Of a stretch of DNA of 64,000 nt, positions 5,829-30,260 are shown one piece after another. Source of the DNA: an uncultured Bacteroidales bacterium. Lineage in GTDB: Bacteria; Bacteroidota; Bacteroidia; Bacteroidales; UBA11471. The position numbers and the translations under genes are program-made. The notes beneath the pieces are model-generated. The model had not been told where the DNA came from, made no database searches, and was given only the letters and a program-made list of their open reading frames with translations. The DNA lies in assembly GCA_944325415.1 (NCBI GenBank), contig CALUZW010000005.1, positions 22,500-86,499 on the forward strand. The letters are read 5' to 3'. Position 1 is the first letter of the stretch, and each line of letters opens with the position of its first letter.

Positions 5829-5866
5829 AAGAGGGATAACCGACTTCAACGTCAGTTATCCCTCTT
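5829..5866. terminator. bidirectional hairpin between convergent genes
   Basis: 12-bp stem aagagggataac / gttatccctctt, followed by a T-rich tract. It sits between the PL10 stop (5805) and the CNNM stop (5885). Confidence 0.6.
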
Positions 5867-5884
5867 TCTTTATCCTCGTTACGA

Positions 5885-7494: not shown

Positions 7495-7502
7495 TACCTT
7501 TG
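7495..7502 (+). promoter_or_regulatory. candidate -7 promoter box (TAnnTTTG)
   Basis: tacctttg, 22 nt upstream of ATG 7524. This argues against the longer ORF start at 7500. Confidence 0.45.
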
Positions 7503-7523
7503 CACATCAAAAAAAATCTGGTT

Positions 7524-8195: not shown

Positions 8196-8216
8196 CAGAC
8201 ATATCCACAACAAGAG

Positions 8217-8249
8217 CGAAGGGGTACCGCCAACGGCGGTACCCCTTCG
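8217..8249. terminator. bidirectional hairpin between convergent genes
   Basis: Perfect 15-bp stem cgaaggggtaccgcc / ggcggtaccccttcg with a 3-nt loop. Confidence 0.7.
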
Positions 8250-8274
8250 TAATATCAAAAGAAAAGGCTCTTCC

Positions 8275-9429: not shown

Positions 9430-9675
9430 CGATTCTTGTTTTTAATAGATTTTCTTTTCATGGTTATACTTTCTCAAAAATCGGAGGCATAAAGATGCTT
9501 TTCCGACATTATCGGGTGTAAAATTAAGCTTTTCTCTCGATTTATGACGCAATTTTTCTTATTTATTCTTATCGACCTGTCGCAAGACGGGCAATAATAC
9601 AAACTTTTGTTTACTTTTGTCACGACGCAACGACCGGCTAAACTGCCCGCCGCGCTCTTATAAACGACATATAAA

Positions 9676-10527: not shown

Positions 10528-10607
10528 CCCTCATATACCCTCACACAAAACCGTGGTGAGGAAAACTCTCGGGGCACAATGTCTCCCGCCCAATGGGCCT
10601 GAACGCA

Positions 10608-10649
10608 CCGACGACCGGAGCGGCACGCTGTGCCTGCTCCGGTCGTCGG
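10608..10649. terminator. bidirectional hairpin between convergent genes
   Basis: 14-bp stem ccgacgaccggagc / gctccggtcgtcgg, extended by inner ggcac/gtgcc pairing. Confidence 0.65.
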
Positions 10650-10671
10650 CATTTATATCACAATGACAAGG

Positions 10672-12243: not shown

Positions 12244-12606
12244 ATTGTTCTTTTTTATGGGTTTAATAATAATCTCACGACCAAAGTGCATTCATGACAT
12301 CGCGTCACCAGCATCCGGATTAAGGCTGGGCAATCGTTTTTTTAGACCGACACAGCCCGGATAAGTGTTTTTTCAATAGGATTGCCAAACGAAGTTAAAG
12401 TTTAACGTACTCCACAAAAATAGAGTAAAAAATATCCTCCAAGGGGCAATTTTAGAGAATAAACGTGTACTTTTTTAACGATTCAGGCATGAAAGTGGAC
12501 AAAATGAGCAAAAAACACAACTATTCAGTCAGATATTTCCCATTATCTCCTTTTCTCATTTAGATACAAGCCGCGTGCTATGCTTGTTATTCCGGCATAT
12601 AGCGAT

Positions 12607-12614
12607 TATATTTG
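12607..12614 (+). promoter_or_regulatory. candidate -7 promoter box (TAnnTTTG)
   Basis: tatatttg, 73 nt upstream of ATG 12687. Confidence 0.4.
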
Positions 12615-12686
12615 CAATGAACACCTTTGTAAAAAGGTACAAATGACTCAACATTCGATATAACACCATAAAAACTTCCCTACATC

Positions 12687-14081
12687 ATGACACGACTCAC
12701 CTATTTTCTGACAGCTGTCGGGCTACTACTTGCCATGCTTCCGGGTATTGCAGCAAACGATGCCGAACGAATGGCCAAACGCGACGCCATATTGGCCCAA
12801 ATCACCGGTGCCGCGATGCCGCAGAAAGAGTTAAAAATCACATCATTCGGTGCCAAAGGCGATGGAAAGAAAGACTGTAAGCCGGCCTTCGACAAGGCCA
12901 TGAAACGGGCCGCCCGGGAAGGGGGTGCCCGCATCGTCGTTCCGGCAGGAGAATACCTGCTCAACGGACCCATACATTTTGTAAGCAACGTGTGTCTCGA
13001 ACTGCAAGATGGGGCAACCCTGAAATTTTCGCCCGAGCCCCGTTACTACCTGCCTTTGGTAAAAACCAGCTGGGAAGGGACATTTCTGCAAAATTACAGT
13101 CCGTTTATCTACGGCTATCAACTCGAAAACGTATCTATCGTAGGCAAAGGCACCATCGACGGAAACGCCGCAACCACCTTCTCCACCTGGAAAAGCCGGC
13201 AAAAGAAAGGTCAGCAGTTGAGCCGCGACATGAACCACCGCGAGACACCGGTCGAGGAGCGCAACTTCGGCGAGGGGTTCTATCTGCGCCCGCAACTGAT
13301 ACAGTTTTTCGACTGCAAGAACATTACCATCGAAGGTGTATTCATTACCAACGCTCCCTTTTGGTGCATTCACCTGCTGAAATCGGAGAACATCATCTGC
13401 CGGGGTATCCGCTACGATGCCAAACTGGTAAACAATGACGGTATCGACCCCGAATACAGCCGCAACCTGCTCATCGAAAATATCGAATTCAATAACGGCG
13501 ATGACAACGTGGCCATAAAATGCGGACGCGACAACGACGGCTGGACGACCAACCGCCCCTCGGAAAACATCATCATTCGCAACTGTAAATTCAAAGGCCT
13601 TCACGGCGTGGTGCTTGGCAGCGAAATGTCGTCGGGTATACAAAACGTCTTTATCGAAAACTGCACCTACGGGGGCTACTGCAAACGGGGTATCTACATG
13701 AAGACCAACCCCGACCGCGGCGGATTCATACGCCACATATATGTCAACAACTGCACCTTCGGCCAGGTAGAAGACCTGTTCTACATCACCTCCATGTATG
13801 CCGGTGAGGGTATGGACAACAATCACTATACCGAAGTATCCGATATTTATGTAAAAGACCTGCGCTGCCAGTCGGCATCGGCTGCCGCACTGGTGCTGCA
13901 AGGCACTACGACCAAACCCATACGCAACGTATATTTCGAAAACGTGAATGTCGACAAGGCCGGCATCGGGCTGAGTTTCTCTAATACCGAATTTATCAGC
14001 ATCAAGAATTGCAACCTGGGCGGCTACGCCGGTGTACCCACAACCATCAGCGACAAAGACAAGATTTTCGACAAAGACTGA
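12687..14081 (+). CDS. GH28 family glycoside hydrolase (second, divergent copy)
   Basis: 464-aa ORF with a signal peptide. Signatures NNDGIDPEYSRN, NNGDDNVAIKCGRD and KGLHGVVLGSEMSSG. Confidence 0.9.
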   Translation: MTRLTYFLTAVGLLLAMLPGIAANDAERMAKRDAILAQITGAAMPQKELKITSFGAKGDGKKDCKPAFDKAMKRAAREGGARIVVPAGEYLLNGPIHFVSNVCLELQDGATLKFSPEPRYYLPLVKTSWEGTFLQNYSPFIYGYQLENVSIVGKGTIDGNAATTFSTWKSRQKKGQQLSRDMNHRETPVEERNFGEGFYLRPQLIQFFDCKNITIEGVFITNAPFWCIHLLKSENIICRGIRYDAKLVNNDGIDPEYSRNLLIENIEFNNGDDNVAIKCGRDNDGWTTNRPSENIIIRNCKFKGLHGVVLGSEMSSGIQNVFIENCTYGGYCKRGIYMKTNPDRGGFIRHIYVNNCTFGQVEDLFYITSMYAGEGMDNNHYTEVSDIYVKDLRCQSASAAALVLQGTTTKPIRNVYFENVNVDKAGIGLSFSNTEFISIKNCNLGGYAGVPTTISDKDKIFDKD

Positions 14082-16455: not shown

Positions 16456-19260
16456 CTACATGAGTACCTTAATGGTGCGGCTGCCGCACTTCACCAGGTA
16501 GAGCTGTCCGCCGGGAACGGGTATTTCCACACATGTGTCGGAGGCGATTCCACGATATACCAACACGCCGGCGGCGGTATATACGGCAATCGGAGTTCCC
16601 GCATCAGCACGCGCTATTGTCAGGCCACCGGCCGAGGCATATACCCTTACCGCAGCTTCGGCATCGGCTTCCACCTCTTCGCTTCCCGAAAAATCCATCT
16701 CCACTATATGGGAGAAATCTTTCCACTCATAAGCCGACTTATAAGCCTCGACCGTTCCTTGGGGCACATAGAGTGTGCAAACTTGTTTGTCGGTTTCCCC
16801 AAAAGAAAAGTTACATTCGGGCGGATTTATGGCTTGGCAAAATATATTTTTCAAATTGAAGCAATTAGCAAAAGCAAAGGGAGCTATCATCTTCACTCCG
16901 TCGGGAATAGTGATGGAGGCAAGGTGACGACAACCGGAAAAAGCGTGTTGGTCTATCTCCGTCACCTCATCGGGAATAGCGATGGAATCGAGGCTGCGGC
17001 AATCGTAAAAAGTCCACTCGTCTATCTTCGACAATCCGCTGCCAAGCGATACCGTTGCAAGGTTGCCGCATTGGTAAAAAGCACAGCGGCCTATCTCCGT
17101 CACCCCGGCGGGAATAGAGACGGAGGCAAGACGGCTGCAACCGCTAAAAGCACTTTCGCCTATCATCGTCAACCTGCCAGGAATAGCTATGGAGTCAAGG
17201 CTGGTGCAATCGGAAAACGCCCACTCGCCTATCGACGTCAACCCACTACCAAACGAAACCTTCTCAAGACTGCTGCAATCGGAAAAAGCATTCTTGCCTA
17301 TCGTCGTCAATCTGTCACCAAGCAACACTGTCGTAAGACCACTACAATAGGAAAACGCCCCTGTGCCTATCTCCGTCACCCCATCGGGAATAGCGATGGA
17401 ATCGAGGCTGCGGCAAGCAGAAAAGGCCCCCTCGCCTATCGACTCCAATCCGGCGGGAAACAATACCGCCGTAAGGTCAAAACATTGATAAAAAGCTTCA
17501 TCGTCAATCGACGTTATCCCGTCAGGAATAGCAATAGAGGCAAGGCGGGTGCATTTGTAAAAAGCTTTCTCGCCTATCGATGTCGCTCCACTACCAAGCG
17601 ATACCGTCATAAGGTCGCCACATCGGTGAGAAGTACTGTTGCCTGCCGTTCCACAACGAAGCGATACCGTTTCGAGGCGCCCATTACAAAAAAAAGCCTC
17701 ATCACCTATCGACGTCAACCCGGCGGGAAGCGATACCTTGGTAAGATTATCACAATAGGAAAACGCCCCTGCACCTATTGTCGTTATCCCATCGGGAATA
17801 GCGATGGAATCAAGACGGGTACAACCGGAAAACGCCCCTGCACCTATCGTCGTTATCCCATCAGGAATAGAGATGGAGTCAAGGCCGCTATCGGAAAAAA
17901 CGCCTTTTTCTAACGCCGTCAAGCCGTCAGGAAGCAATACCGTCGTAAGGCTACGGCAACCGGAAAAAGCATAGTCTTCTATCGAAGTGACTCCGTCGGG
18001 AATATTAATCGACGTAAGGCCGATGCAATACCAAAAAGCGCTACTGCCAATCGTCGTCACCTCATCGGGTATATCAATAGAGACAAGGCTGCTGCATTCT
18101 GCAAAGACTCTTCTGTCTATCATCGTCAACCCTTTGGGTAGGGCGACAGAGACGAGACCGCTGCAACCCCTAAAAGCATTGTCTTCTATCGAAGTGACTC
18201 CGTCGGGAATATTAATCGATGTAAGGCCACGGCAACCCCAAAAAGCGCCATCGCCTATCGTCGTCACCTCGCCGGGTATATCAATGGAGGCAAGGCTGCT
18301 GCAATCGGAAAAGACTTTGCTGTCTATCAACTTTAACCCTCTGGGAAGTGTGACAGAGACGAGACCGCTACAACCTGAAAAAGCATTGTCTTCTATCGAA
18401 GCAACTCCGTCGGGAATAGCAATAGTGGCAAGACCGCAACCGGAAAAAGCGCTACGCCCTATCGTCGTCACCTCGCCGGGTATATCAATGGAGGCAAGAC
18501 GGCTGCAACCGAAAAAAGTTGAGTCGTTTATTGACTCCAACCCGCCGGGAAGTGTAACAGAGACGAGACCACTGCAACCGGAAAAAGCGCTGCGGCCTAT
18601 CGTTGTCACCTCATCGGGAATAGCAATAGTGGCAAGGCCGCAATCGGAAAAAGTAGAGTCGTTTATTGACTTCAACCCACCAGGAAGTGAGACAGAAACG
18701 AGACCACTACAACCAGAAAACGTGTTGTCGCTTATCGAAGTGACTCCATCGGGAATAGCAATAGTAGAAAGGCTGCTGCAACCGGAAAAAGCGCTACGGC
18801 CTATCGACGTCAACCCGCGGCCAAGCGATACCGTCGTAAGGCCGCTGCAACCGGAAAAGGCATAGTTGCCTATCGTCGTCACCTGGTCGGGAATAGTGAC
18901 AGAGAGGAGACCGTTGCAACCGTAAAAAGCACTACTGCCTATCGACTCCAATCCGGCAGGGAGTGTTATCGAGGCAAGATCGCTGCAACCGGTAAAAGCG
19001 CCCAGTCCTATCGCCGTCACCGTATAGGTCGTGCCATTGTAGCTCACCGTATCGGGGACTACGATGTCTCCCACGTAATTCCATAACGACACTGCCACGG
19101 TTCTCTCACTCTCGGAGAGAACTTCATAATAGATGCCATCAACACCGAAATCGTATGCATGAACGTTGGGTACCACGCAAAAAGCTACAAACAGAAACAA
19201 AATCTTAATCAGTCTCCTTCTCATCATCGTTCTATTTTTAACTCTACTTATCCATCTCAT
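16456..19260 (-). CDS. BspA-type leucine-rich-repeat surface protein with T9SS C-terminal sorting domain
   Basis: 934-aa ORF with ~30 tandem ~23-aa LRR units (..IP.GVT.IG..AF.GC..L.S..). The C-terminal ~75 aa (AAVRVYASAGGLTIARADAGTPIAVYTAAGVLVY...LYLVKCGSRTIKVLM) look like a type-A T9SS CTD. The promoter box at 19265-19272 suggests the true start may be M12 (19227). Confidence 0.9.
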   Translation of the reverse strand: MRWISRVKNRTMMRRRLIKILFLFVAFCVVPNVHAYDFGVDGIYYEVLSESERTVAVSLWNYVGDIVVPDTVSYNGTTYTVTAIGLGAFTGCSDLASITLPAGLESIGSSAFYGCNGLLSVTIPDQVTTIGNYAFSGCSGLTTVSLGRGLTSIGRSAFSGCSSLSTIAIPDGVTSISDNTFSGCSGLVSVSLPGGLKSINDSTFSDCGLATIAIPDEVTTIGRSAFSGCSGLVSVTLPGGLESINDSTFFGCSRLASIDIPGEVTTIGRSAFSGCGLATIAIPDGVASIEDNAFSGCSGLVSVTLPRGLKLIDSKVFSDCSSLASIDIPGEVTTIGDGAFWGCRGLTSINIPDGVTSIEDNAFRGCSGLVSVALPKGLTMIDRRVFAECSSLVSIDIPDEVTTIGSSAFWYCIGLTSINIPDGVTSIEDYAFSGCRSLTTVLLPDGLTALEKGVFSDSGLDSISIPDGITTIGAGAFSGCTRLDSIAIPDGITTIGAGAFSYCDNLTKVSLPAGLTSIGDEAFFCNGRLETVSLRCGTAGNSTSHRCGDLMTVSLGSGATSIGEKAFYKCTRLASIAIPDGITSIDDEAFYQCFDLTAVLFPAGLESIGEGAFSACRSLDSIAIPDGVTEIGTGAFSYCSGLTTVLLGDRLTTIGKNAFSDCSSLEKVSFGSGLTSIGEWAFSDCTSLDSIAIPGRLTMIGESAFSGCSRLASVSIPAGVTEIGRCAFYQCGNLATVSLGSGLSKIDEWTFYDCRSLDSIAIPDEVTEIDQHAFSGCRHLASITIPDGVKMIAPFAFANCFNLKNIFCQAINPPECNFSFGETDKQVCTLYVPQGTVEAYKSAYEWKDFSHIVEMDFSGSEEVEADAEAAVRVYASAGGLTIARADAGTPIAVYTAAGVLVYRGIASDTCVEIPVPGGQLYLVKCGSRTIKVLM
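16863..19083 (-). repeat. intragenic tandem repeat array (69-bp LRR unit, 207-bp higher-order unit)
   Basis: Copies of gtcttctatcgaagtgactccgtcgggaat... start at 17974, 18181 and 18388, exactly 207 bp apart. The first ~48 nt of copies 1 and 2 differ at a single base. Confidence 0.85.
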
Positions 19261-19623: not shown

Positions 19624-20241
19624 TTAGTCTTTGGTGAGCGTATATCCTTTGTTTTCTTTTTGCAGCAGGCCTTGATTGACCAACTGCAATATGGCTCTCG
19701 ACAGGGAGGGGCGAGCTACACCAAGAATAAATGCAGCCTCTTGAAGATTCTGTATGGCGCCGTTTTGCTGTATATAACTTATAATTCTCGACGAGAGCGT
19801 CTGCAAGGCAAACTCGTTCAACCGCTTGCTCAGAAACACACTATGGTCCGATATGACCGTCAAATAATTTCGCAGGACCAAAGAATCTTCTTTGATAATC
19901 CGCAAAATACTCTCCTTGTTTACGATCCAAAGGCTACAATTACTGTTTGCCAGTATTGTAATGGGGAATATTCCTTCGGTGCTGAATATAAAGGAAGAGG
20001 CCAGGACATCGGGTGCCGACAAGGTGTCGAGGGTCAGTTCTTTCCCCTCCTCGCTTATCATCTTGGCATAGACACTGCCTTCGCACAGAATATACAGCGA
20101 ACGGCAGGCACTCCCCTGCACGGCGATGGTATCGCCTTTTTTATACTGGACATACCGGCTGGGAAAGTCGTGCATGATTTTCTCGATGGCATCTTTATTA
20201 CCGCCTTTAAACAAAGGCATTTCATAAATATCATTATTCAT
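19624..20241 (-). CDS. Crp/Fnr family transcriptional regulator
   Basis: 205-aa ORF. N-terminal cNMP-binding beta-barrel (FKGGNKDAIEKI...YKKGDTIAVQGSACRSLYILCEGSV) and C-terminal HTH (QEAAFILGVARPSLSRAILQLVNQGLL). Confidence 0.85.
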   Translation of the reverse strand: MNNDIYEMPLFKGGNKDAIEKIMHDFPSRYVQYKKGDTIAVQGSACRSLYILCEGSVYAKMISEEGKELTLDTLSAPDVLASSFIFSTEGIFPITILANSNCSLWIVNKESILRIIKEDSLVLRNYLTVISDHSVFLSKRLNEFALQTLSSRIISYIQQNGAIQNLQEAAFILGVARPSLSRAILQLVNQGLLQKENKGYTLTKD

Positions 20242-20287: not shown

Positions 20288-20301
20288 GTAACATTTGTTA
20301 C
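20288..20301. promoter_or_regulatory. perfect palindrome GTAACA-tt-TGTTAC, candidate Crp/Fnr-type operator
   Basis: 5-N4-5 (GTAAC ATTT GTTAC) inverted repeat in the divergent crp/lipoprotein-cluster intergenic region. Its centre is ~43 nt upstream of the TSS predicted from the -7 box at 20324-20331. Confidence 0.4.
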
Positions 20302-20478: not shown

Positions 20479-22398
20479 ATGAGACATACAATTTATCTCT
20501 TTCTGATAAGTATAATCGTACTCCTTCCTGCATGTGTAAAAGATGATTATCTGGACACTGTTCCCTCTGAGAACGGGTTCACCGGCATTTCGTTCCGGCT
20601 GGTACACGAGGGATATGCCTCGGAAGTACCGAGCGAAGGTTTAAAGAGTGGAGTTCGGGAAGAAGCGGTCATACCCTCTTCGGGCAAAATGACAAGACAA
20701 AGCCTCTCCAACTACGACAAAGTAGAGTTTGTCGTAATCGACGAAGAGGGGTATAAGGTCGAAGGTGTGAAAGGCATCTATGACAAGACTACGTCGAATA
20801 TGCGGTTGGAAGGCCTGCATGAGGGCTCTTACCGCATACTTATTCTGGGCGTGAAAGGCGACATCTCGGCCGACAAAGCGACGATAAACAGAATCGCCCA
20901 TGCATCAGACGTGTGGCTTTCGTTTCCCGCCGAACTGGCCAAACCCCTGGAATGCGAATATTTCTATTCGTCAACCCCGTTTACGGTAAGCAAGGTTTCT
21001 ACCTCGCTCGGGTATGAACTGGTGGCAGAGATTGCCGAGGACGTCGTTCAACGCCGCATAGTGGGGAGAGTGGATTTTGTCTTCTCGTACAATAATCCCT
21101 ATGTAAAAACAGCCCTCACCACAAATACGGTTACATTACACACGAGCCGGTTTTACACGCAGATTTCGGGTGAGGGTACTTTTTCGGGCGAAAGCAATGG
21201 CGAAATGAGAGTTCTGGATATGTCGGGACAGACCGAATATCTATTTATGCCGACGATTGCAGAGAGCCCGATAAAGGGAAGTGCCACCCAAAACACCCGG
21301 GACTATCGGGGACACACGACAAAACGCACCTACACCTTTGAGCTAAACAAGGTCGAGGAAAACCACATCGGCCGCATAGAGATAAACGTTGTACACCCCG
21401 ACGATGAAATGGGAACAATGTTTATTACCGGCCAGGCGTATGCCAAAGGGCAACACGGCTACATTCTGCAAGACGATGAACCGCACACCCTGTATACCGA
21501 CAAGAGTCTCCGCAACTTCAACACATCACGTCCGCTGCAACTCTCTGTAACCAATGATGGGCAGTTGCATGCAAGGTTCTACTCACCGCGCAGCCTCAAC
21601 AACGTTCTGGTAAAAGCGCGCATACCCTCCGTGGGCGACGAATATGTGCATTTAGCCTACTTCGACAGCATTCCGGCTTTTGCCGATTTCTATGAAGAAA
21701 TACCCCTTTTAAAGAAAGAGTTGTACTACCGTTCGGAATCGGGAAGGATTGTCAGAATACCCATGATGCAGGCCGATGATTTTTCGGGAATTGAGTTTGA
21801 AATTGAGTCAGATGATCCCTACCTAGAAAAGTTAAAGGCCATCATTCACGGGTGGAACATACGGTTCGACCTGTATGGAGGCGATCCGACCCGACCCGAT
21901 GGTGGTCCTGTCGGGAACTGGATGGGAATCCGACCCGTACATTGTCGCGAAGCCGTAGCTTTCTTCCTGAACTTTACATACATGATTGACATGCCCGAAC
22001 ACGAAGAGATATTACGGGCAAACGAAGACCGGCTGTATGGTAATGGTGGTGTAACCGACAAGGTTACTGCCGACGTCGTATTGCAACAGATGAGACAAGA
22101 ACGCACACTGAATGTCGGGCTGGTATATCCGGGGAATGGTGTTATCGGACTGGGGGGAGGTTCTGCCTTTGGAGTATATCAATCGGGCTGGCTGAATCAC
22201 TATACCAACACCTATGCCTGCGAAATCATGTTTCATGAGTTGGGGCACGTGATGGGCTACAACCATAGCAGCGCTTTCACTTACGGGCCTTGGGCACAAG
22301 AGCTTATGAACCATTTTTATGTAACGCATCTGAACGACATGCCCATAAACTCGTCCCATTACCTCAACAGCAGTAAAAATCCGACTCTTTATCAGTAA
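20479..22398 (+). CDS. lipoprotein: distant fimbrillin (Mfa2/FimB)-like N-terminal module + C-terminal metzincin-type zinc metallopeptidase
   Basis: Lipobox IIVLLPAC. N-terminal blocks (FVVIDEEGYKV, SYRILILGVKGD, VVQRRIVGRVDFVF) parallel those of the three downstream genes. HELGHVMGYNH at nt 22234-22266 fits HExxHxxGxxH, with a possible Met-turn (QELMN) 15 aa later. Confidence 0.7.
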   Translation: MRHTIYLFLISIIVLLPACVKDDYLDTVPSENGFTGISFRLVHEGYASEVPSEGLKSGVREEAVIPSSGKMTRQSLSNYDKVEFVVIDEEGYKVEGVKGIYDKTTSNMRLEGLHEGSYRILILGVKGDISADKATINRIAHASDVWLSFPAELAKPLECEYFYSSTPFTVSKVSTSLGYELVAEIAEDVVQRRIVGRVDFVFSYNNPYVKTALTTNTVTLHTSRFYTQISGEGTFSGESNGEMRVLDMSGQTEYLFMPTIAESPIKGSATQNTRDYRGHTTKRTYTFELNKVEENHIGRIEINVVHPDDEMGTMFITGQAYAKGQHGYILQDDEPHTLYTDKSLRNFNTSRPLQLSVTNDGQLHARFYSPRSLNNVLVKARIPSVGDEYVHLAYFDSIPAFADFYEEIPLLKKELYYRSESGRIVRIPMMQADDFSGIEFEIESDDPYLEKLKAIIHGWNIRFDLYGGDPTRPDGGPVGNWMGIRPVHCREAVAFFLNFTYMIDMPEHEEILRANEDRLYGNGGVTDKVTADVVLQQMRQERTLNVGLVYPGNGVIGLGGGSAFGVYQSGWLNHYTNTYACEIMFHELGHVMGYNHSSAFTYGPWAQELMNHFYVTHLNDMPINSSHYLNSSKNPTLYQ

Positions 22399-22417: not shown

Positions 22418-24679
22418 ATGAATACAAGAATCTTCAAACTCACACCTGTATTTCTTTTCCTGCTCTGGGGAATAGTGGGGTGTAACGAAAATCTCGATAT
22501 GTTGGAGACTGGAAATGCCCAAATGATAACCGTAAGGTTGTCGCCCGATAATCTGTCGGGAAGCGGCAACGAATCCATCATCAAGAATGTAACCGGTTAT
22601 CGTTTTGTCGACGGCATACTCGAAGAAGTAATCACGCCCTCGCAGACAGGTGGTACAAACCAGTTTGCTTTCGCGCCGGCAACTTTCTCGGGCACGCTAT
22701 ACATATTGTGTAACTCTACATCATTAAAGGGTACCGGAACACTCACTCCCCGATATTCGACCCTCGACGAGTTTCTCGCCATGGAAGGCAGCATCGAAGA
22801 GATGACCGGCGACGGTCTGCTGATGACCGGCAAGACCGATATCGAGAAATCGACCTCTGCCGTCGTGGCGATGACACGAAGCATGGCAAGAGTCGATATC
22901 GAATCTCTCGAAAAGGGCGTACAGGTACAAAAAGTCATCATTCATAATTTGGCCGATAAAGGCTATGTCATGGCCAGAGAAAATGTAGCGACCGCCGCAT
23001 CGGCTGCCAGGTTTGATTTCATAAAAGAGTACGCCGATGCTCCTGTCGAGAACAAAAGCGAGACGCTCCTCTATATTCCCGAACAGACAAGCGATTCGCT
23101 TTTCGTAGAGGTTACCATTACATTCGGTGACGGATTGCACCTGCTTAAAGCAGCGCTCCCGTCGGTGATACGCCGGAACGAGGTTCACACCCTGAAAATT
23201 CACGGGAAGGGTGCCGAAATGCAACTCGTTATCGAAAGTGATGGCTGGGAGGCGGGAACATCGGCCGGGTCGAGCCCATCGATCGAAGGTCTTGTTGATG
23301 TAGAAAACTCCACACTCTCCGATGGAGTGAGGGTGAATGAAACAAGAGACACCGTCTTTGTTCCATATCATGGAAGCGACTTTGTATTGGCACTCATGGC
23401 CGAGGCAAACGCTACCGTAACTATCGACGGCTCGGTAGCCGGCGTAGAAATATCTCATAACGTCAATAAAGAGAGAAGCCTCTTAGAACGAATAGCCGAA
23501 GTTTCCGTCAGCAGCCGCCGGCGTATGCCCGGCCGGACGGCTGAAAGAATCCATTTGGACATCTATGGCAACGATGCAACCAATCTCGGTAGAGTCGTGC
23601 TTATTATCGAGTCCAACCCGATAGAGGTAGACGGGGCCATTCGTTTTGACGACAACGCAATGTGCGATTTCAAGCAATACATCGACGGAGAGCTGGGTAT
23701 CATCACGCTCCCGCCCCACAAGATACTCCACGTAGAATTTGATGCCGATGAATCGGCATGGCTGAAAGCTGCCGAAACAGCCTCCGAAGCGATTGATCCG
23801 GCAGACATGCCAGGCAAGAGATACCGTATTGTCAGTGGATGGAAACCCAACGACCCCAAAGCTGACGGACGGATTCAAGAGGGCCGGCTAATCATTTCGG
23901 ACGAAGATGGAAGCAACGAAGAGACCTATACCGTGCGAAGGATAAACTGGGGGTTACCCGTAGTGAAGATAGGTGAAACATGGTGGTGCAAATACAACTT
24001 GCGGGGAGATGTAAAATCTTTTGAAGACCAGATAACAATCCCCAACGACCCGGCACCTCATCACGACCTGCTTTCTTACCTGACGACCGTAGCCGACGAT
24101 GAGCTCCTGGAAATATTGGGCGATCAATATCAAGGCGGGAACAGCCGGGGACTGCCGTTGCGCCACGACGGGACCGCATTTTATCACGAGGGAATGGCCT
24201 CGCAGGCTCAGAACTTCGGGTTGCTCCCCCCGACAGAAATGGCTCCGCAAGGATACCAGATTCCCGACTATGATGATTACCTCGTCTTTTCTAAAAATGG
24301 GAACTTCAACCTTGGAGGCGTAGGCTCACGGACATATCAAAACAGCGCCGGGCAAGATATACGGATTACGATTGTAGAGAGAGATGTCAATTTTCTGGGT
24401 CATAACTATGGAATCATATCGTTCTATGATTTTGAGATAGACGGCTCTCATTACCTCCTTAACGGACTGGGGCACCAGTGGGACACGACACACGGGAATA
24501 TTGCCCGCATGAATCTGCTCCTGGCCACTTATGGGAACAGCAGTCAGACGTGGACAATGGAAGGATATGCAAGCGCCATAAAACCCAATGAAAACTGGAT
24601 TAAGTTTGTAACCAACAATGCCACAAAGACACGACTGATAAGATGCATCAAGACTCCCGTAGAATATATCTACGATTAA
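22418..24679 (+). CDS. lipoprotein: fimbrillin-like N-terminal module + beta-rich middle region + FISUMP/C-type-lectin-like C-terminal domain
   Basis: Lipobox LWGIVGC. Pilin-like blocks are GTLYILCNS, MTRSMARVDI and IRRNEVHTLKI. The C-terminal 250 aa (nt 23927-24676), VVKIGETWWCKYNL...PQGYQIPDYDDYLVF...TRLIRCIK, parallel the Fibrobacter major paralogous domain consensus (kiGnqtWmaeNL...GWrlP..eEw..L...SVRCvk). Confidence 0.7.
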   Translation: MNTRIFKLTPVFLFLLWGIVGCNENLDMLETGNAQMITVRLSPDNLSGSGNESIIKNVTGYRFVDGILEEVITPSQTGGTNQFAFAPATFSGTLYILCNSTSLKGTGTLTPRYSTLDEFLAMEGSIEEMTGDGLLMTGKTDIEKSTSAVVAMTRSMARVDIESLEKGVQVQKVIIHNLADKGYVMARENVATAASAARFDFIKEYADAPVENKSETLLYIPEQTSDSLFVEVTITFGDGLHLLKAALPSVIRRNEVHTLKIHGKGAEMQLVIESDGWEAGTSAGSSPSIEGLVDVENSTLSDGVRVNETRDTVFVPYHGSDFVLALMAEANATVTIDGSVAGVEISHNVNKERSLLERIAEVSVSSRRRMPGRTAERIHLDIYGNDATNLGRVVLIIESNPIEVDGAIRFDDNAMCDFKQYIDGELGIITLPPHKILHVEFDADESAWLKAAETASEAIDPADMPGKRYRIVSGWKPNDPKADGRIQEGRLIISDEDGSNEETYTVRRINWGLPVVKIGETWWCKYNLRGDVKSFEDQITIPNDPAPHHDLLSYLTTVADDELLEILGDQYQGGNSRGLPLRHDGTAFYHEGMASQAQNFGLLPPTEMAPQGYQIPDYDDYLVFSKNGNFNLGGVGSRTYQNSAGQDIRITIVERDVNFLGHNYGIISFYDFEIDGSHYLLNGLGHQWDTTHGNIARMNLLLATYGNSSQTWTMEGYASAIKPNENWIKFVTNNATKTRLIRCIKTPVEYIYD

Positions 24680-24722
24680 GATATTGAAAATCATAAACAC
24701 CGAACTTAACCGAAGCGCAATA

Positions 24723-25628
24723 ATGAAAACAAAACTTTTCTATACCGTATTCGCATCTTTAAGCCTTTTCACATCATGCTCGAAAGATGATGCAACAACC
24801 CCCTCCTTCCCCGATGGAAATGGAGATGGACACAGAACCGTAAAGACTTCCATAACAGAATATGATGGCATCGGGCCGGCCCTGGAAAACGAGAGTATCG
24901 TAACAGATATGCAGGCTTGTATATTTGAGGACGGAAAGATGACCCGTATCTATAACAACCTTGTTCTCTCAGGAAACAGTTTCGACATACAACTCGACAA
25001 ATATGCCGGAACATTGTATGTACTGGCAAATACCCAAGAACAGATTCACCTGGAAGAGTTGAAAAGTCAGGAGATAACGGAGGAAGAGTGGTTAAAGAGA
25101 TGGATGACGGTAAAAAACAATACACCGGTACATTTCTATTCGGGGAGTGTAAATCTGAACCACATGGAGGCCTCACAGACCACACTCCCGGTGAGTCTGA
25201 AAAGAGGGTTTGCCCGTTTCGACCTCCAAATCAGAACCGCGGGTACAGCATCGGTAAGCCGCATTACCTTGAAGAATGCCGCACAATCAGGCACCCTTTT
25301 TTCCGACGGCAGCGCATACACCCCCCAGGAAGTCCCTGTGGGCGACATGAGTGTCTCTTTCGACGCCCCGCTTGCGACAGATACTCCGGCCGTATTCTAT
25401 GCCTATGAACAGGCCAATGAGAATCTTGAAATAAGTGTCGAAGCCGTTATCAACGGGAAGTCTCATACCCTGACAAAAGCGTTTAACGGCGACATCATGC
25501 GCAACACGATTTATACGATAACCGTCCGCCAGGATGTCATCGATGTAACGGTCGAAGTCTCTTTCGACGAATGGGAAGAAGGGCCTGATACCGAACTCGT
25601 GCCCCACACGCTGAGCTCTTCAAATTAA
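24723..25628 (+). CDS. FimB/Mfa2-like fimbrillin-family lipoprotein (module only, 301 aa)
   Basis: Lipobox SLFTSC. Blocks ACIFEDGKMTRIY, GTLYVLANTQ, LPVSLKRGFARFDLQI, RNTIYTITVRQD and FDEWEEGPDTEL align one-to-one with the N-terminal 300 aa of the next gene. Start set at ATG 24723. Confidence 0.7.
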   Translation: MKTKLFYTVFASLSLFTSCSKDDATTPSFPDGNGDGHRTVKTSITEYDGIGPALENESIVTDMQACIFEDGKMTRIYNNLVLSGNSFDIQLDKYAGTLYVLANTQEQIHLEELKSQEITEEEWLKRWMTVKNNTPVHFYSGSVNLNHMEASQTTLPVSLKRGFARFDLQIRTAGTASVSRITLKNAAQSGTLFSDGSAYTPQEVPVGDMSVSFDAPLATDTPAVFYAYEQANENLEISVEAVINGKSHTLTKAFNGDIMRNTIYTITVRQDVIDVTVEVSFDEWEEGPDTELVPHTLSSSN

Positions 25629-25633
25629 AAAAA

Positions 25634-25650
25634 GCCCCACGGCGTGGGGC
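25634..25650. other. GC-rich intracistronic hairpin after the short fimbrillin-like gene
   Basis: gccccac-ggc-gtggggc (7-bp stem), preceded by a 7-A run and not followed by a T run on the + strand. Confidence 0.5.
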
Positions 25651-25691
25651 GCTTGCAATCTTTGTTACACATAGAAAATGATATGGACATT

Positions 25692-27986
25692 ATGAGAAAA
25701 ATATATTCGGTTTTCTTTCTTACACTTCTGTTACTGACCGGTTTGTCCTGCGACGACCAGTCGCACGGAGAGGGCCTTTTTGAAAACAGCGACAGGATAA
25801 TCTGCACAGAGGTATCGTATCTTTTTTCCGACAACCAGACAGAGGCCGACAGTGAAGACAATATAGAAGAGATCGGCGCCTTTCTTTTTGATGAGGGGAA
25901 ATTTGTAAAAGAATATATCGGGAGCAAACAGGCCCACAGCAAATATGAATTTCGGCTCGATGCCATGAAAGGGAATCTGTATGTTGTGGCCAACGCCTCC
26001 CTTCTCCCCGACTTCGCATCGCCCGCACCGGGACTCTCGGAAGAGGAATGGCGCAAAACCATCATACACTCCACCGATGGAAAAGCCGAAAGGGTATATA
26101 CCGGTGTCGTATCGCTATCCAACCCGTCGGATTATGTAATCCCGGTATCGCTGAAAAGAGTAGCCGCCCGCTTCGATTTGCGAATTGCCGTGGCCGGAAC
26201 GGTCGAAGTAAAAGAGATAACCTTTAAGAATGTAGCGAAGAATGCCTACCTCTTTCCCCAATCAGAGGTCGTCTCGCCCGAAGTGAGAGACACGGCCGAC
26301 ATTGCGCTTGTACCTGAACAGCCGTATCACGATACCGAGCCGGGAATCCTGTATGTGTATGAGCAGCACAATCGAGACTTGAAGGTCGTGTTAAACGCTA
26401 CCATCGAGGGAAAAGAATACTCACTCGAAAGCGATTTGCCCGAAACGATTTCCCGCAATACGGTCTACTCCATCACCCTCCGCAAAGATGTGGTCGACAA
26501 AGAGGTGCAACTCACCGTAGAGGAATGGAAAGACGGCGGAGACACCGCTTTGAAACCGGGAATAGACTCACCCCTTACCATAGACTCGACCCTTGTGGCG
26601 CTACCCCGTAATGTAACGATTGCCCAAGAGGGTACCATGCTCATACTGCCACATCTGGAAACCGATTTCATCGTGGCCATAAAAAGCGACAGCGAATTGG
26701 AGGTCGTGCCAGTAGCCGATGACTTGCTGACCGTAGAACCGGTCTCCGACCCGGAACTCAGCGATAAGGCCGCAAACTCTTTATCGGGCATCAACCTTTT
26801 CAGGATTCGCAAAAAACTCTATGCGCCCAACATGAAAACGGCTGACCTCTTGCTCTATTTCCATCGGAAAGGACTGCATAACTTCTACCCCGAAGACCAC
26901 ATTCACATACGTATGACGGGAAACCCTACAACCAGCGAAGGGGCGTTGGAGTTCGGGACAGATACATATACCCACGATTTCGGCCGCTACATAGACAACG
27001 AGTTCGGTATTTTTACGCTTCCGTCCGAAAAAGAGATGATTGTAGAATTTGAAGAAGGAGAAGATGCCTGGATAAAGATTGAGGCCGAGAGTGATGGCAA
27101 CCGATACCGTGTGTTGGGCGGTTGGCGCCCCAATGACCCCACGGCCAATGGCCGCAAGCAATCGGCCACCCTTGTCATCAGAAACAAAGAAGACAACACC
27201 GACCGGGAAGCCTATACCGTAATACGTCGCAATTACGGCTTGCCGGTAACATGGCTGCATGGTGTGTGGTGGTGCAAATACAATGCCATCAAGAACTCAA
27301 AGAGTTTTGAAGATCAGATACTCTCCTCATCCGACCCGGCCGCACAATCGGGCATGACCCTCTTTCAATATCTCACCTCCTGCTCAGCGGCAGACTTTTT
27401 CGACCTCTGGGGCTGGGCATACCAAGGAGGCAGCGGGCAAGGTATGCAGGTTATCGAACAAGACGGTGTCGTTGTCTTGGAACGATTCACCCGAGACGAA
27501 AAAGTACACATCAACAAATTGGACCCGAAGGCTCTTTCACCCGACGGATACGAGCTGCCCTCGATGGAAGAGATCAACCGGCTGTTCGATGCGACAGACT
27601 ATGTATGGATGATGTATAACGGAACCCACACATTGAAAAATCCGTGGAACGGACATTCACAGATAAAACGTCAGCAACTTCGCAAGAACGACATACCCGT
27701 AGGCACCACGACCGTATCGGATATCATCTATGTTGCCATGTCGAGCCCCGACTATCCCGAACACGAGCCTCTTGTATGGTATGGCCCGGCGGCACAGTGG
27801 AACGATGCCGGCATAATGCATTCGGGGCATTACAACAATATCCTTTTCGGGGTTTACTCCCCCACCGGTGAAGGGTGGTACATGAACGGGGGCATGTCCA
27901 ACCTGTACCTGATGAAAAACGGAGCCAGCAGTTACGACACCCGTATTCTCCGATTCAAGAAGTCGGACGTTGAATACATCTATTGA
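25692..27986 (+). CDS. lipoprotein: fimbrillin-like N-terminal module + beta-rich middle region + FISUMP/C-type-lectin-like C-terminal domain (paralog of 22418-24679)
   Basis: Lipobox LLTGLSC. Pilin-like blocks are AFLFDEGKFVKEY, GNLYVVANAS, IPVSLKRVAARFDLRI, RNTVYSITLRKD and VEEWKDGGDTAL. The C-terminal 257 aa (nt 27213-27983), GLPVTWLHGVWWCKYNAIKNSKSFEDQI...PDGYELPSMEEINRLF...TRILRFKK, are homologous to the C-terminus of 22418-24679. Confidence 0.7.
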   Translation: MRKIYSVFFLTLLLLTGLSCDDQSHGEGLFENSDRIICTEVSYLFSDNQTEADSEDNIEEIGAFLFDEGKFVKEYIGSKQAHSKYEFRLDAMKGNLYVVANASLLPDFASPAPGLSEEEWRKTIIHSTDGKAERVYTGVVSLSNPSDYVIPVSLKRVAARFDLRIAVAGTVEVKEITFKNVAKNAYLFPQSEVVSPEVRDTADIALVPEQPYHDTEPGILYVYEQHNRDLKVVLNATIEGKEYSLESDLPETISRNTVYSITLRKDVVDKEVQLTVEEWKDGGDTALKPGIDSPLTIDSTLVALPRNVTIAQEGTMLILPHLETDFIVAIKSDSELEVVPVADDLLTVEPVSDPELSDKAANSLSGINLFRIRKKLYAPNMKTADLLLYFHRKGLHNFYPEDHIHIRMTGNPTTSEGALEFGTDTYTHDFGRYIDNEFGIFTLPSEKEMIVEFEEGEDAWIKIEAESDGNRYRVLGGWRPNDPTANGRKQSATLVIRNKEDNTDREAYTVIRRNYGLPVTWLHGVWWCKYNAIKNSKSFEDQILSSSDPAAQSGMTLFQYLTSCSAADFFDLWGWAYQGGSGQGMQVIEQDGVVVLERFTRDEKVHINKLDPKALSPDGYELPSMEEINRLFDATDYVWMMYNGTHTLKNPWNGHSQIKRQQLRKNDIPVGTTTVSDIIYVAMSSPDYPEHEPLVWYGPAAQWNDAGIMHSGHYNNILFGVYSPTGEGWYMNGGMSNLYLMKNGASSYDTRILRFKKSDVEYIY

Positions 27987-29166: not shown

Positions 29167-29715
29167 ATGATGATATTTTTACAACTCTTTTGGTCTTTTT
29201 TCAAGATTGGCTCGTTTACCATCGGTGGCGGCTATGCCATGGTGCCCATCATAGAGGAGGAGCTGGTGCGGAAAAAAGGGTGGATCGACAGCGCAGAGTT
29301 TATCGATATGCTGGCCCTCTCGCAATCGGCGCCGGGTATTCTGGCCGTGAACATCTCCATCGCCACGGGCTACCGCATCAAGGGGCTTGCCGGTGCGATA
29401 ACGGCCACGCTGGGTACGGTGCTGCCGTCGTTTATCATCATACTGCTCATTGCCATGTTTTTCCAGCGGTTTCAAGACAATGCGGTGGTGGAGCGCATCT
29501 TCAAGGGCATACGTCCGGCCGTGGTGGCACTCATTGCCGCTCCGGTATTCAAACTGGGCAAGTCGGCACGCATCAACCGTTACAATGTATGGATTCCGGT
29601 GGTGGCGGCTCTGCTGATATGGCTGCTCGACTTCTCTCCGATATGGGTGGTACTCATTGCCGGCATCGGCGGCTATCTCTATGGCGTATATAAAAGAAGG
29701 GAGGCACGGAAATGA
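29167..29715 (+). CDS. chrA: chromate transporter (CHR) family protein, short-chain half 1
   Basis: 182-aa hydrophobic ORF. FFKIGSFTIGGGYAMVPIIEEELV..KGWI...F.D.LALSQSAPG is the CHR signature. Confidence 0.85.
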   Translation: MMIFLQLFWSFFKIGSFTIGGGYAMVPIIEEELVRKKGWIDSAEFIDMLALSQSAPGILAVNISIATGYRIKGLAGAITATLGTVLPSFIIILLIAMFFQRFQDNAVVERIFKGIRPAVVALIAAPVFKLGKSARINRYNVWIPVVAALLIWLLDFSPIWVVLIAGIGGYLYGVYKRREARK

Positions 29716-30260
29716 TTTGGTTGCAACTGTTCTATTCGTTCTTTAAAATCGGCCTTTTCGGTTTCGGCGGCGGATATGCCATGCTCTCAATGATTCAGGG
29801 CGAAGTGGTAACGCGCCACGAGTGGCTCACGCCGCAGGAGTTTACCGACATTATCGCCATCAGCCAGATGACCCCCGGCCCCATCGGCATCAACTCGGCC
29901 ACCTACATCGGCTACACGGCCACGGGCAGCGTGTGGGGGTCGGTATTGGCTACGCTGGCGCTGGTGCTGCCATCGTTTATCATCATGCTCATTCTCTACC
30001 GCTTTTTCATGCGGTATCACAACAACCAGCACGTTACCGACACGTTTGCGGGGCTGCGCCCGGCTGTTATCGGCCTCATCGCCTCGGCAGCACTCGTGCT
30101 GATGAACAGCGAGAACTTCGGTTCGCCCACGGACGATACACGGCAGTTTGTCGCAAGCCTGCTCATCTTCGGAGCCGTGCTGGTGGCCAATTTCTTTTTC
30201 AGGGTGAACGCCATACTGTTGATTGTCCTGGCCGGTGTGGCCGGATTTTTAATATACTGA
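29712..30260 (+). CDS. chrA: chromate transporter (CHR) family protein, short-chain half 2
   Basis: 182-aa paralog (FFKIGLFGFGGGYAMLSMIQGEVV..HEWLT..EF.D.IAISQMTPGP). Its start overlaps the upstream stop by ATGA. Confidence 0.85.
   Translation: MIWLQLFYSFFKIGLFGFGGGYAMLSMIQGEVVTRHEWLTPQEFTDIIAISQMTPGPIGINSATYIGYTATGSVWGSVLATLALVLPSFIIMLILYRFFMRYHNNQHVTDTFAGLRPAVIGLIASAALVLMNSENFGSPTDDTRQFVASLLIFGAVLVANFFFRVNAILLIVLAGVAGFLIY

Follow-up and report, generated by a model that had tools for sequence, protein, structure and literature searches.

A conserved Bacteroidales module encoding two paralogous pilin-stalked lipoproteins with non-variable heads and a metzincin protease

The described proteins closest to those considered here are the tip subunits of type V pili. 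In Bacteroides, the tip adhesins BfrT, BthT and BunT are diversified by diversity-generating retroelements (DGRs). Their heads adopt C-type-lectin folds in which the C-terminal region is variable, a reverse transcriptase (RT), Avd and a template repeat are adjacent, and the genes lie at the end of anchor/stalk operons, often on ICEs (bioRxiv 10.1101/2024.11.15.621889). Dozens of type V pilin-like operons are found in gut Bacteroidales, and hardly any of them has a known ligand or role.

The locus examined here lies in a 64 kb stretch of DNA from an uncultured Bacteroidales bacterium (contig CALUZW010000005.1), which was analysed as a whole and is referred to as the window. With the DGR-diversified adhesins, its proteins share a pilin-like N-terminus, sometimes a connecting domain, a globular head presumed to bind a ligand, and an origin in gut Bacteroidales. 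However, the locus differs from theirs in having no DGR, a highly conserved C-terminus, no detected C-type-lectin fold and no anchor or stalk genes. With the accessory and tip pilins of type V pili (Mfa3, Mfa4, FimC-E; 3UP6, 4JG5, BovFim1C), it has in common a signal peptide and lipobox, a two-domain pilin-like stalk and a short operon made up of pilin-like paralogs; the large C-terminal payloads and the lack of a free C-terminal donor strand are also as expected for tip-type subunits. In contrast to these pilins, three distinct tip-like payload proteins are encoded together with neither a major stalk nor an anchor pilin, the stalks match the Pfam and NCBIfam pilin models only below threshold, an Arg/Lys maturation site is not evident, and the head matches no known tip head.

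Gene organisation and the paralogous pair

The features of the locus are listed below, with positions as in the window.

19624..20241, minus strand: divergent Crp/Fnr-family regulator with cNMP-binding and HTH_Crp_2 domains (Pfam cNMP_binding, E=2e-13)
20288..20301, no strand assigned: perfect palindrome GTAACATTTGTTAC (GTAAC-N4-GTTAC) between the regulator and gene 1, candidate operator
20479..22398, plus strand: gene 1, predicted lipoprotein with pilin-like N-terminus and metzincin metallopeptidase (profile match to PDB 9tpb)
22234..22266, plus strand: zinc motif HELGHVMGYNH (HExxHxxGxxH) of gene 1, read directly from the sequence
22418..23272, plus strand: gene 2, aa 1-285, signal peptide, lipobox (Cys22) and type V pilin-like stalk (hhalign, stalk profile against 3UP6)
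23273..23635, plus strand: gene 2, aa 286-406, middle spacer domain (aligns with gene 4 residues ~301-426)
23636..23941, plus strand: gene 2, aa 407-508, Ig-like beta-sandwich (AF2 model)
23942..24679, plus strand: gene 2, head A, C-terminal globular domain of 245 aa ending ...RCIKTPVEYIYD and a stop codon (AF2 pLDDT 92.6)
24723..25628, plus strand: gene 3, stalk-only type V pilin-like lipoprotein, lipobox Cys followed by SKDD (weak Mfa_like_1 match)
25683..26921, plus strand: gene 4, signal peptide, lipobox (Cys at 25749-25751), pilin-like stalk and middle spacer (3UP6 profile match)
26922..27224, plus strand: gene 4, aa 427-527 (ORF numbering), Ig-like beta-sandwich, counterpart of gene 2 aa 407-508 (pairwise and multiple alignments)
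27225..27986, plus strand: gene 4, head B, 253 aa ending ...RFKKSDVEYIY and a stop codon (alignment A2)

Genes 2 and 4 are ancient paralogs. Their plus-strand ORFs extend from 22418 to 24679 (753 aa) and from 25644 to 27986 (780 aa as an ORF), with the probable start of gene 4 at ATG 25683 or 25692. The initial annotation, made from the sequence alone, had aligned the two proteins over their last ~350 aa. The paralogy is real, but this limit was wrong, as BLASTP aligns the whole length (residues 41-752 with 60-780, 26 % identity, E=2e-66), and the C-terminal part is only the best-aligning region. Of the two starts proposed for the shared C-terminal cassette, 23636 is in frame (gene 2 aa 407) but ~26920 is one base off, the in-frame position being 26922 (gene 4 aa 427).

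The cassettes had been estimated by eye to be roughly one third identical, in agreement with the 32 % found between genes 2 and 4 in a MAFFT alignment; the heads taken separately are 26 % identical (alignment A2). The motifs quoted for the cassette, namely FG/CDFxxYID, AW[LI]K, YR[IV]xxGW[KR]PNDP, GLPV, WWCKYN, KSFEDQI and DGY[QE][IL]P, were all found, as was the terminal R[IL][IL]R[CF][IK]K...VEYIY.

The proposed division of the cassette into a beta domain of ~100 aa followed by a globular head of ~245 aa is borne out by an AF2 model (pLDDT 93.2), in which the first domain is all-beta with strands at residues 9-105. That domain had been called BACON-like. Neither cassette matched BACON (PF13004 or PF19190) at E<=10, a scan of 33 relatives at E<=1 gave no BACON family either, and Ig-like beta-sandwich is the only label that can be given. 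The middle spacer domain that precedes it in gene 2 has a median identity of 44 % among orthologs.

In every source except UniRef these proteins are named "hypothetical protein", and the UniRef label DUF4906 carried by gene 2 orthologs was not reproduced with the current Pfam library. Searches of the PDB with genes 2 and 4 as single sequences gave no matches, and a profile of the cassette matched PDB entries only at chance level (ribosomal protein L23a).

Pilin-like stalks and the gene 1 payload

The stalks of genes 2, 3 and 4 are mutually homologous (hhalign, 100 %); the stalks of gene 2 orthologs, for example, match a profile of the gene 3 and gene 4 stalks with 100 % probability (E=1.5e-47). 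Gene 3 is 30-33 % identical to the gene 4 stalk, and a separate gene 3 is missing in roughly half of the related loci. A stalk profile built from 49 sequences matched 3UP6 (E=7.4e-7) and 4JG5 (E=0.033), which are both Mfa4-like pilin structures. With single stalk sequences, the Pfam families Mfa_like_1 and P_gingi_FimA were matched only below threshold (for gene 4, Mfa_like_1 at E=2.5e-4, and also P_gingi_FimA). The FimD tip adhesin equivalog NF052322 (cut-off 170 bits) gave 29.5 bits (E=3e-7) over the N-terminal 240 residues only of gene 4, and no match to gene 2. These matches agree with the pilin-like, "tip-like" stems described initially and, judged by profile similarity, the stalks are members of the type V pilin (Mfa4/FimA) superfamily.

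Genes 1-4 each have a signal peptide and a lipobox (LPAC, IVGC, FTSC and GLSC, respectively) with acidic residues next, and the equivalent Cys is invariant in the orthologs inspected (C23 in alignment A3 and C19 in alignment A4). We take this start, a Cys and then acidic residues, to resemble the signal for surface export of lipoproteins in Bacteroidota. In the consensus of the stalk alignment A3, the ~50 residues that follow the Cys contain no conserved Arg/Lys that could serve as a maturation site. Because the module holds no recognisable gene for a stalk-polymer (major) or anchor pilin and gene 3 is short and optional, incorporation of these proteins into a true pilus is putative.

The gene 1 ORF opens with TTG at 20434, but the probable start is ATG 20479, as the orthologs begin at the equivalent Met. 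The lipobox Cys is at 20533-20535 and is followed by VKDD. The N-terminal ~200 aa matched the stalk profile with 91 % probability (hhalign, P=9e-7) and are probably homologous to the stalks of genes 2-4. The C-terminal payload is identified by its sequence as a metzincin metallopeptidase domain. Positions 313-584 of the gene 1 family profile match PDB 9tpb ("Metallopeptidase | metzincin") with E=3.2e-15, and H586, E587, H590, G593 and H596 of the zinc motif (alignment A4 numbering) are invariant among 24 orthologs. One ortholog is labelled "Peptidase M12B domain-containing protein" in UniRef. The payload shares with the metzincin of PDB 9tpb/9tpc the HExxHxxGxxH zinc site and ~270 alignable residues (E=3e-15); CpaA and the adamalysin-like M12B peptidases are more distant relatives. 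Unlike 9tpb/9tpc, gene 1 encodes a lipoprotein with an N-terminal region of ~310 aa, the first ~200 residues of which are stalk-like. A literature search found no paper describing the 9tpb structure.

The heads and their likeness to FISUMP

The initial annotation had assigned the heads to a FISUMP/C-type-lectin-like class. FISUMP domains (PF09603 / TIGR02145) are found in Bacteroidota lipoproteins and show the same order of motifs as the heads, V.IG..W...NL, then P.G[WY].[IV]P...[DE][WY]..[LF], then a terminal [IV]RC[IV]K, and weak sub-threshold HMM scores were reproducible. However, the heads are ~60 aa longer and score only 13-16 bits against cut-offs of 34-42, and head B lacks the terminal Cys and has no match. 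The gene 2 head reached 15.5 bits (E=0.02) with TIGR02145, whose cut-off is 41.65, over model positions 13-175 of 176, and 13.9 bits (E=0.066) with PF09603 (cut-off 33.9). The gene 4 head matched no FISUMP model even at E<=10, and no family in Pfam or NCBIfam matched head A above its cut-off. Among 33 family members, 14 matched PF09603 below threshold (best E=0.0017), and in 26 of 138 cases the FISUMP HMM gave real heads a higher score than 1380 shuffles.

For profile-profile comparison, an artificial FISUMP-like sequence served only as bait; the at least 120 matches listed were all annotated with PF09603, and only those real proteins were used. Against 119 PF09603-annotated domains, hhalign gave 44 % for the head-A type (P=2.3e-4), 11 % for the head-B type (P=2.7e-3) and 35 % for both together. 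The two head types aligned to identical FISUMP columns, 11-98 only, through the motifs V.IG..WW/M..NL and aP.G[WY].[IV]P...[DE][WY]..[LF], and under relaxed alignment the terminal IRCIK was placed on SVRCV of FISUMP. Scores of 27-34 exceeded those of reversed-profile controls (~11-14). Block-shuffled FISUMP profiles equalled the real scores in 3/60 and 1/60 trials, indicating that short W-rich motifs supply most of the score. A profile of the family searched against 1.84 billion representatives retrieved 189 proteins and, as nearly all of the full-length proteins among the 150 matches listed share the family architecture, the very large FISUMP family was evidently missed.

Foldseek with the two-domain model gave only weak Ig-like and cadherin matches, which were driven by the first domain, and the head was therefore modelled alone (pLDDT 92.6). 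Against 350 542 PDB chains, this model gave nothing at E<=0.001 (best E=0.084, TM 0.15) and no lectin-fold entry among the top 50 matches; no C-type-lectin, FGE, Mtd or TvpA-like match was found (TM<=0.2). A search of BFVD also found no significant fold match and no lectin fold, and the entry with the top query-normalised TM-score was a FISUMP-annotated phage protein (E=0.26, TMq 0.24). Foldseek can miss embellished folds, a caveat that applies to both null results. As no solved FISUMP structure was found in the PDB (phmmer), the PDB search is no direct test of a relationship to FISUMP.

The FISUMP similarity of the head is therefore reproducible but far below threshold, and the head is a family so far undescribed. 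It may still be that the heads are very divergent members of the FISUMP or C-type-lectin-fold class, forming lectin-type adhesin heads on pilin stems with no DGR involved. The shared motif order and the recurring weak scores would fit, as would the BFVD result and the existence in Bacteroides of tip adhesins that combine a pilin stem with a C-type-lectin head (bioRxiv 10.1101/2024.11.15.621889). Against this stand the deficit relative to every curated cut-off, the silence of gene 4, the hhalign probabilities, the block-shuffle trials, the failure of the family profile to recover FISUMP, the greater length of the head, and a confident model with no C-type-lectin counterpart, and we regard such membership as rather unlikely.

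Several polar residues of the head are invariant, namely N19, D29, Q30, Y63, Q179, R231, R234 and K237 (head numbering, alignment A2). They could also be explained by an enzymatic role or by a fixed protein-protein interface to the protease. A Cys16-Cys235 disulfide is a possible candidate feature of the head.

Conservation of the module, proposed role and regulation

A conserved module around genes 2 and 4 is a new observation. Its parts are the Crp/Fnr-type regulator, the palindrome, the metzincin pilin-like lipoprotein, head A, an optional stalk-only pilin and head B. The gene order 1-2-(3)-4 is kept in 80 of 80 loci, while the remaining flanks differ, and head B is downstream of head A in all loci examined. 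The module is kept in at least five Bacteroidales lineages, with loci in Barnesiella, Alistipes, Cryptobacteroides, Phocaeicola, Bacteroides, Mediterranea, Prevotella and Coprenecus; orthologs in Phocaeicola plebeius are found on at least 1000 contigs. Gene 1 and the two heads occur together in every locus examined, a co-occurrence that is a genomic association only. Between Bacteroidales families, the protease has a median identity of 73 %, head A of 61 % and head B of 66 %, compared with 35-36 % for the stalks. The heads are under purifying selection, and the far better conservation of heads and protease than of stalks favours fixed ligands over diversification. The divergence of the two heads, which had been taken to suggest different specificities, is better described as that of two ancient ortholog groups, each separately conserved.

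With moderate confidence, we favour the reading that genes 2 and 4 encode stalked surface lipoproteins with heads for fixed ligands, and that these belong to a self-contained module and cooperate with the co-encoded protease. Each protein consists of a type V pilin-like stalk, two spacer domains (the second Ig-like) and a head of ~250 aa; genes 1, 2 and 4 are the three constant structural genes, with gene 3 an optional stalk-only copy. The heads may be exposed on the cell surface, where they could cap type V pilus-like fibres or stand alone on stalked lipoproteins, and may act as non-variable binding modules for two different fixed ligands or partner surfaces. They might work with the protease, for instance by keeping its target in place, be it a glycoprotein of host or dietary origin or the surface of another cell.

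A bolder version, that the heads are a new fold family rather than a lectin or FISUMP derivative and form, with the metzincin paralog, a regulated three-payload pilin-stalked surface apparatus that is widely conserved in Bacteroidales and so far unrecognised, is speculative and we consider it quite unlikely. If true, a protease and two receptor-binding heads of fixed specificity would be presented on the common type V pilin-like stalk, a pilus-borne device to "bind, bind and cut" a specific glycoprotein of host or diet, and the Crp/Fnr-type regulator would switch it on via GTAAC-N4-GTTAC. A head that turned out to be a new fold, or a far-removed branch of FISUMP, would add to the known range of bacterial surface-recognition domains.

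The heads could instead be dedicated partners of the metzincin, such as substrate adaptors, latency or inhibitor modules, or assembly factors, making the module a regulated surface protease complex. The constant company of gene 1 and both heads, the protease domain as the best-conserved element, the strong purifying selection and many invariant polar residues of the heads, and a common stalk type that would set the three payloads side by side are all compatible with this. Searches of Pfam, NCBIfam and the PDB gave no likeness to known metzincin pro-domains or inhibitors. We consider this reading very unlikely.

Fixed-ligand heads, as in the favoured reading, are consistent with the results on DGRs. 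The initial annotation had reported neither an RT nor a template repeat, and this stands, with no repeat of either 3' end in the 64 kb window and no RT domain among its 25 larger ORFs (Pfam). Across 81 related loci, no template repeat was found within 10 kb, and a crude motif-regex screen of these loci for FISUMP or RT genes gave no ORF with RT motifs and recovered only the family itself. The suggested check, whether variation is concentrated in the last ~40 residues, revealed no hypervariability; column entropy there was as low as or lower than in the rest (1.98 vs 2.18 for 110 head-A type sequences; 1.73 vs 1.74 for 28 of the head-B type). The terminal ...VEYIY is nearly invariant. The heads are better conserved than any other part of the gene 2 and gene 4 proteins, and the C-terminus ranks with the most conserved stretches. 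A conserved head whose last 40 residues are no more variable than the rest is the reverse of a variable scaffold of the DGR type. When the window is compared with a 97 %-identical genome (complete MAG OZ007034.1), the differences are evenly spread, with one local excess at 24500-24750; this was considered as a variable 3' end and rejected, as it consists of indels in the non-coding spacer between genes 2 and 3. That a DGR encoded elsewhere in the genome targets the 3' ends of genes 2 and 4 could be entertained because the regions inspected were the window and the 10 kb flanks of relatives, but with no template repeat or RT in the window or within 10 kb of 80 orthologous loci (RT by crude motif regex), a C-terminus conserved as much as the rest or more, and evenly spread differences whose local excess is intergenic, this explanation is close to refuted.

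The module offers a contrast to the DGR-diversified tip adhesins, with a like architecture but a head frozen by purifying selection. It is small, sharply defined and found in common human and poultry gut taxa, and its protease and two conserved heads with no recognisable fold relatives make it a tractable entry point to questions about the ligands of stalked lipoproteins, the delivery of proteases on pilin scaffolds and control by a Crp/Fnr-type regulator.

A homolog of the regulator is directly upstream of gene 1, and divergent from it, in 59-63 of ~78 related loci, and is the sole conserved flanking gene among them. The palindrome GTAACATTTGTTAC occurs once in the 64 kb window, and GTAAC-N4-GTTAC was found upstream of gene 1 in 53 of 78 loci. 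In most lineages, the divergent regulator accompanies the module and probably acts through GTAAC-N4-GTTAC as a candidate operator; regulator and palindrome are both present in 51 loci and both absent from 15.

A conserved module of pilin-like lipoproteins

At this locus lies a conserved module of predicted surface proteins, unannotated and with a hitherto undescribed head domain. Public annotation lists its proteins as 'hypothetical protein'. In UniRef, orthologs appear as 'DUF4906 domain-containing' or 'Peptidase M12B domain-containing', the former label not reproduced with current Pfam. The features are as follows.

19624-20241, minus strand, Crp/Fnr-family regulator, divergent from gene 1
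20288-20301, between regulator and gene 1, perfect palindrome GTAAC-N4-GTTAC, unique in 64 kb
20434/20479-22398, plus strand, gene 1, ORF opening the four-gene same-strand cluster
22234-22266, plus strand, HELGHVMGYNH, an HExxHxxGxxH motif invariant in 24 gene-1 orthologs
22418-24679, plus strand, gene 2, ORF of 753 aa
23636-24676, plus strand, cassette of gene 2 (aa 407-753, from the alignment)
24684/24723-25628, plus strand, gene 3, ORF
25644/25683-27986, plus strand, gene 4, 780 aa as ORF
26922-27983, plus strand, cassette of gene 4 (aa 427-780, from the alignment)

The paralogy of genes 2 and 4 is clear (E=2e-66, 26% identity, pairwise BLASTP). The initial annotation had limited this paralogy to the last ~350 aa, here termed the cassette, namely an Ig-like domain and a globular head (head A in gene 2, head B in gene 4). 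The cassette is the best-aligned part (32% identity in the multiple alignment) and all motifs quoted for it were found, but the BLASTP alignment starts at residue ~41 and extends to the C-terminal residue in both proteins, and the whole protein is therefore common to the two genes. The cassette start at 23636 matches aa 407 of gene 2, but the one placed at ~26920 was one base off frame and is corrected to 26922.

All four proteins start with a signal peptide, and acidic residues come after the lipobox cysteine (C-VKDD, C-NEN, C-SKDD and C-DDQ), an arrangement that we take to resemble the Bacteroidota lipoprotein surface-export signal. Relative to a profile of the gene-3 and gene-4 stalks, which matches type V pilin (Mfa4-like) structures, the gene-2 stalk is homologous with 100% probability (hhalign), and the first ~200 residues of gene 1 (91%, P=9e-7) are probably homologous. 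All four thus belong to one paralogous set of type V pilin-like lipoproteins with different C-terminal payloads, bearing out the pilin-like stems predicted earlier. In some relatives, the head-B protein has a gene-3-type stalk (L009:11070-13400, and three-gene loci such as L063, L068, L074 and L078), with 45-65% identity to gene 3 and only 34-37% to the gene-4 stalk, which suggests fusion, fission or recombination among paralogous stalks.

The payload of gene 1, a lipoprotein at 20479-22398, is a metzincin of ~300 aa. A profile of 24 orthologs matched PDB entry 9tpb ('Metallopeptidase', 'metzincin') at E=3e-15, and the recently deposited 9tpb and 9tpc are relatives of this domain.

One genome per species was scanned, which yielded 208 matching stretches. 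The analysis covered the best 80 loci, most of them from the gut of poultry or humans, which belong to Barnesiella, Alistipes and other Rikenellaceae, Candidatus Cryptobacteroides, Coprenecus, Phocaeicola, Bacteroides, Mediterranea, Prevotella and others. The order gene 1, head-A protein, head-B protein is kept in 80/80, which makes head A and head B ancient ortholog groups, each conserved separately. Some loci resemble the window in having a distinct gene 3 with a stalk only, others lack gene 3, and others have a short (~510-550 aa) head-B protein without a stalk. The module thus amounts to three or four co-inherited pilin-like paralogs, all lipoproteins, whose payloads are a protease, head A and head B, the optional fourth having none. 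A dedicated regulator and a putative operator accompany them in most lineages. The divergent Crp/Fnr-family regulator, found in 59-63 loci (median distance 140 nt), is the sole conserved neighbour; other flanking genes differ between lineages, making the module a self-contained unit. The palindrome, a likely operator site, lies upstream of gene 1 in 53/78 related loci. Its occurrence follows that of the regulator, both being present in 51 loci and both absent from 15.

Median identity to the window proteins in other families
Gene-1 C-terminal domain, 73%
Head B, 66%
Head A, 61%
Ig-like domains, 50-57%
Gene-1 N-terminal part, 46%
Middle domains, 38-44%
Stalks of genes 2 and 4, 35-36%

Gene 1 is the best-conserved gene of the module, judged by its C-terminal domain, and the payloads rather than the stalks are the most strongly constrained. 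One further sequence, P0033 (L001:102-1787; ENA ERZ16268298 scaffold_39, contig end), is a gene-2-stalk/gene-4-head chimera. Compared with window 23015-24054 and 27305-27986, its crossover falls within the conserved WWCKYN...KSFEDQI, and nucleotide identity to the window is 78% for the gene-2 portion but 92% over the gene-4 portion and the flank downstream. This is either a real deletion by paralog recombination or metagenome assembly collapse at the contig end.

Structure and affinities of the heads

The AlphaFold2 model of the cassette (33-sequence alignment) is confident (pLDDT 93.2, pTM 0.90) and has two domains, an all-beta Ig-like sandwich (residues ~1-105) and a mixed alpha/beta globular head. 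Modelled alone (40 sequences), the 245-aa head gave pLDDT 92.6. The two-domain organisation first described is thus retained. However, BACON models matched neither the cassette nor its relatives, the gene 2 and 4 cassettes even at E<=10, and the BACON label was dropped in favour of Ig-like sandwich, the limit of what is claimed.

Foldseek found no significant neighbour of the head model among 350,542 PDB chains (best E=0.084, TM 0.15) or in BFVD (best E=0.11). C-type lectin, FGE, Mtd and TvpA-like entries were absent from the best 50 matches in both, and there is no structural support from the models for the lectin fold originally proposed.

Membership of the FISUMP family (PF09603/TIGR02145) had also been proposed. 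The gene 2 head matched TIGR02145 over model positions 13-175 of 176, but at E=0.02 and 15.5 bits (cut-off 41.65), and PF09603 at E=0.066; the gene 4 head matched neither. Below-threshold PF09603 matches occurred in 14/33 relatives (best E=0.0017). Against a 119-domain alignment derived from 120 genuine PF09603-annotated proteins, hhalign gave 44% probability (P=2.3e-4) for the head-A-type profile and 11% (P=2.7e-3) for the head-B-type, both on FISUMP columns 11-98, the N-terminal hairpin and P-x-G-[WY]-x-[IV]-P helix motif. After shuffling in blocks of 8 columns, profiles equalled these scores in 3/60 (head A) and 1/60 (head B) trials, so short motifs supply most of the score. With a FISUMP HMM, the median score was 3.25 bits for real heads (maximum 13.6) and -0.9 for shuffled ones (maximum 6.6). 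Searched against 1.84 billion representative proteins, the family profile had only 189 matches. Nearly all full-length ones among the 150 listed share the family's ~740-aa architecture, and the very large FISUMP family was thus evidently not recovered. No solved FISUMP structure was found with phmmer, and the sole FISUMP-annotated BFVD model matched (E=0.26) nevertheless topped the list by query-normalised TM-score (0.24).

A FISUMP signal is therefore faintly hinted at by sequence, reproducible but missing every threshold for membership, and may reflect very remote kinship or convergent motifs. Within the general picture of stalked heads, a far-diverged FISUMP or C-type lectin derivative is possible but unlikely, the alternative being a new fold.

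Fixed heads and the absence of a nearby retroelement

The last 40 residues, suggested earlier as the place to look for concentrated variation, vary no more than the remainder of the head, and the terminal K-x-P/D-VEYIY is almost invariant. Relative to the complete, 97%-identical MAG OZ007034.1, substitutions are evenly spread. A spike of differences at 24500-24750 mimicked a variable gene 2 3' end and was traced to intergenic indels; the gene 2/gene 3 spacer (24677-24722) has several, including an 8-nt insertion.

Among known systems, type V pilus tip and accessory pilins come nearest. In architecture, the nearest are Bacteroides tip adhesins diversified by diversity-generating retroelements (DGRs), in which a C-Lec head follows a pilin-like N-terminal part, in some cases with a connector domain (bioRxiv 10.1101/2024.11.15.621889). 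The locus has in common with them the stalk superfamily and the arrangement of a head on a stalk. However, the locus has no DGR, no anchor or stalk genes and no detectable C-Lec fold, its heads are frozen rather than variable, a metzincin-bearing paralog is always present, and it has its own Crp/Fnr-type regulator.

On balance, we favour a picture in which pilin-like stalks carry binding heads that do not vary and whose function is coupled to that of the metzincin. The proteins would be exported to the cell surface and, given their large C-terminal payloads, would be tip-type rather than polymerising subunits. They may cap fibres whose stalk and anchor genes lie elsewhere, or be free-standing stalked lipoproteins. 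Each head would recognise a fixed ligand or surface of its own, acting jointly with the protease. That they are instead protease adaptors or regulators, not adhesins, is improbable.

The earlier reading that no DGR is present holds. Within the 64-kb window the 3' ends of genes 2 and 4 are not repeated, and Pfam scans of 25 larger ORFs found no reverse transcriptase, only housekeeping and carbohydrate-use genes. In 81 loci with 10-kb flanks, a crude regex found no ORF with reverse transcriptase motifs, and the sole template-like matches were the reciprocal gene-2/gene-4 3' ends. A DGR elsewhere targeting these ends is barely conceivable.

Neighbouring genes

Pectin/rhamnogalacturonan-utilisation genes upstream (3907-14081; Pec_lyase, GH88, GH28) indicate an ordinary chromosomal carbohydrate-use neighbourhood with no obvious mobile element. 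A 934-aa BspA-type leucine-rich-repeat surface protein (16456-19260, minus strand; Pfam LRR_5, E=2e-277) has a 69-nt (23-aa) DNA periodicity that gives rise to repeat families D1 and D2, and a second, shorter one with a DUF6383 C-terminus lies at 44644-46320 (minus strand). Adjacent overlapping 182-aa ORFs at 29167-29715 and 29712-30260 share a 49-nt repeat (80% identity, family D4). The syntenic genes in L001 (92% nucleotide identity) carry Pfam Chromate_transp, with a FolC-like Mur-ligase gene next, and the pair looks like a split chromate-transporter pair.
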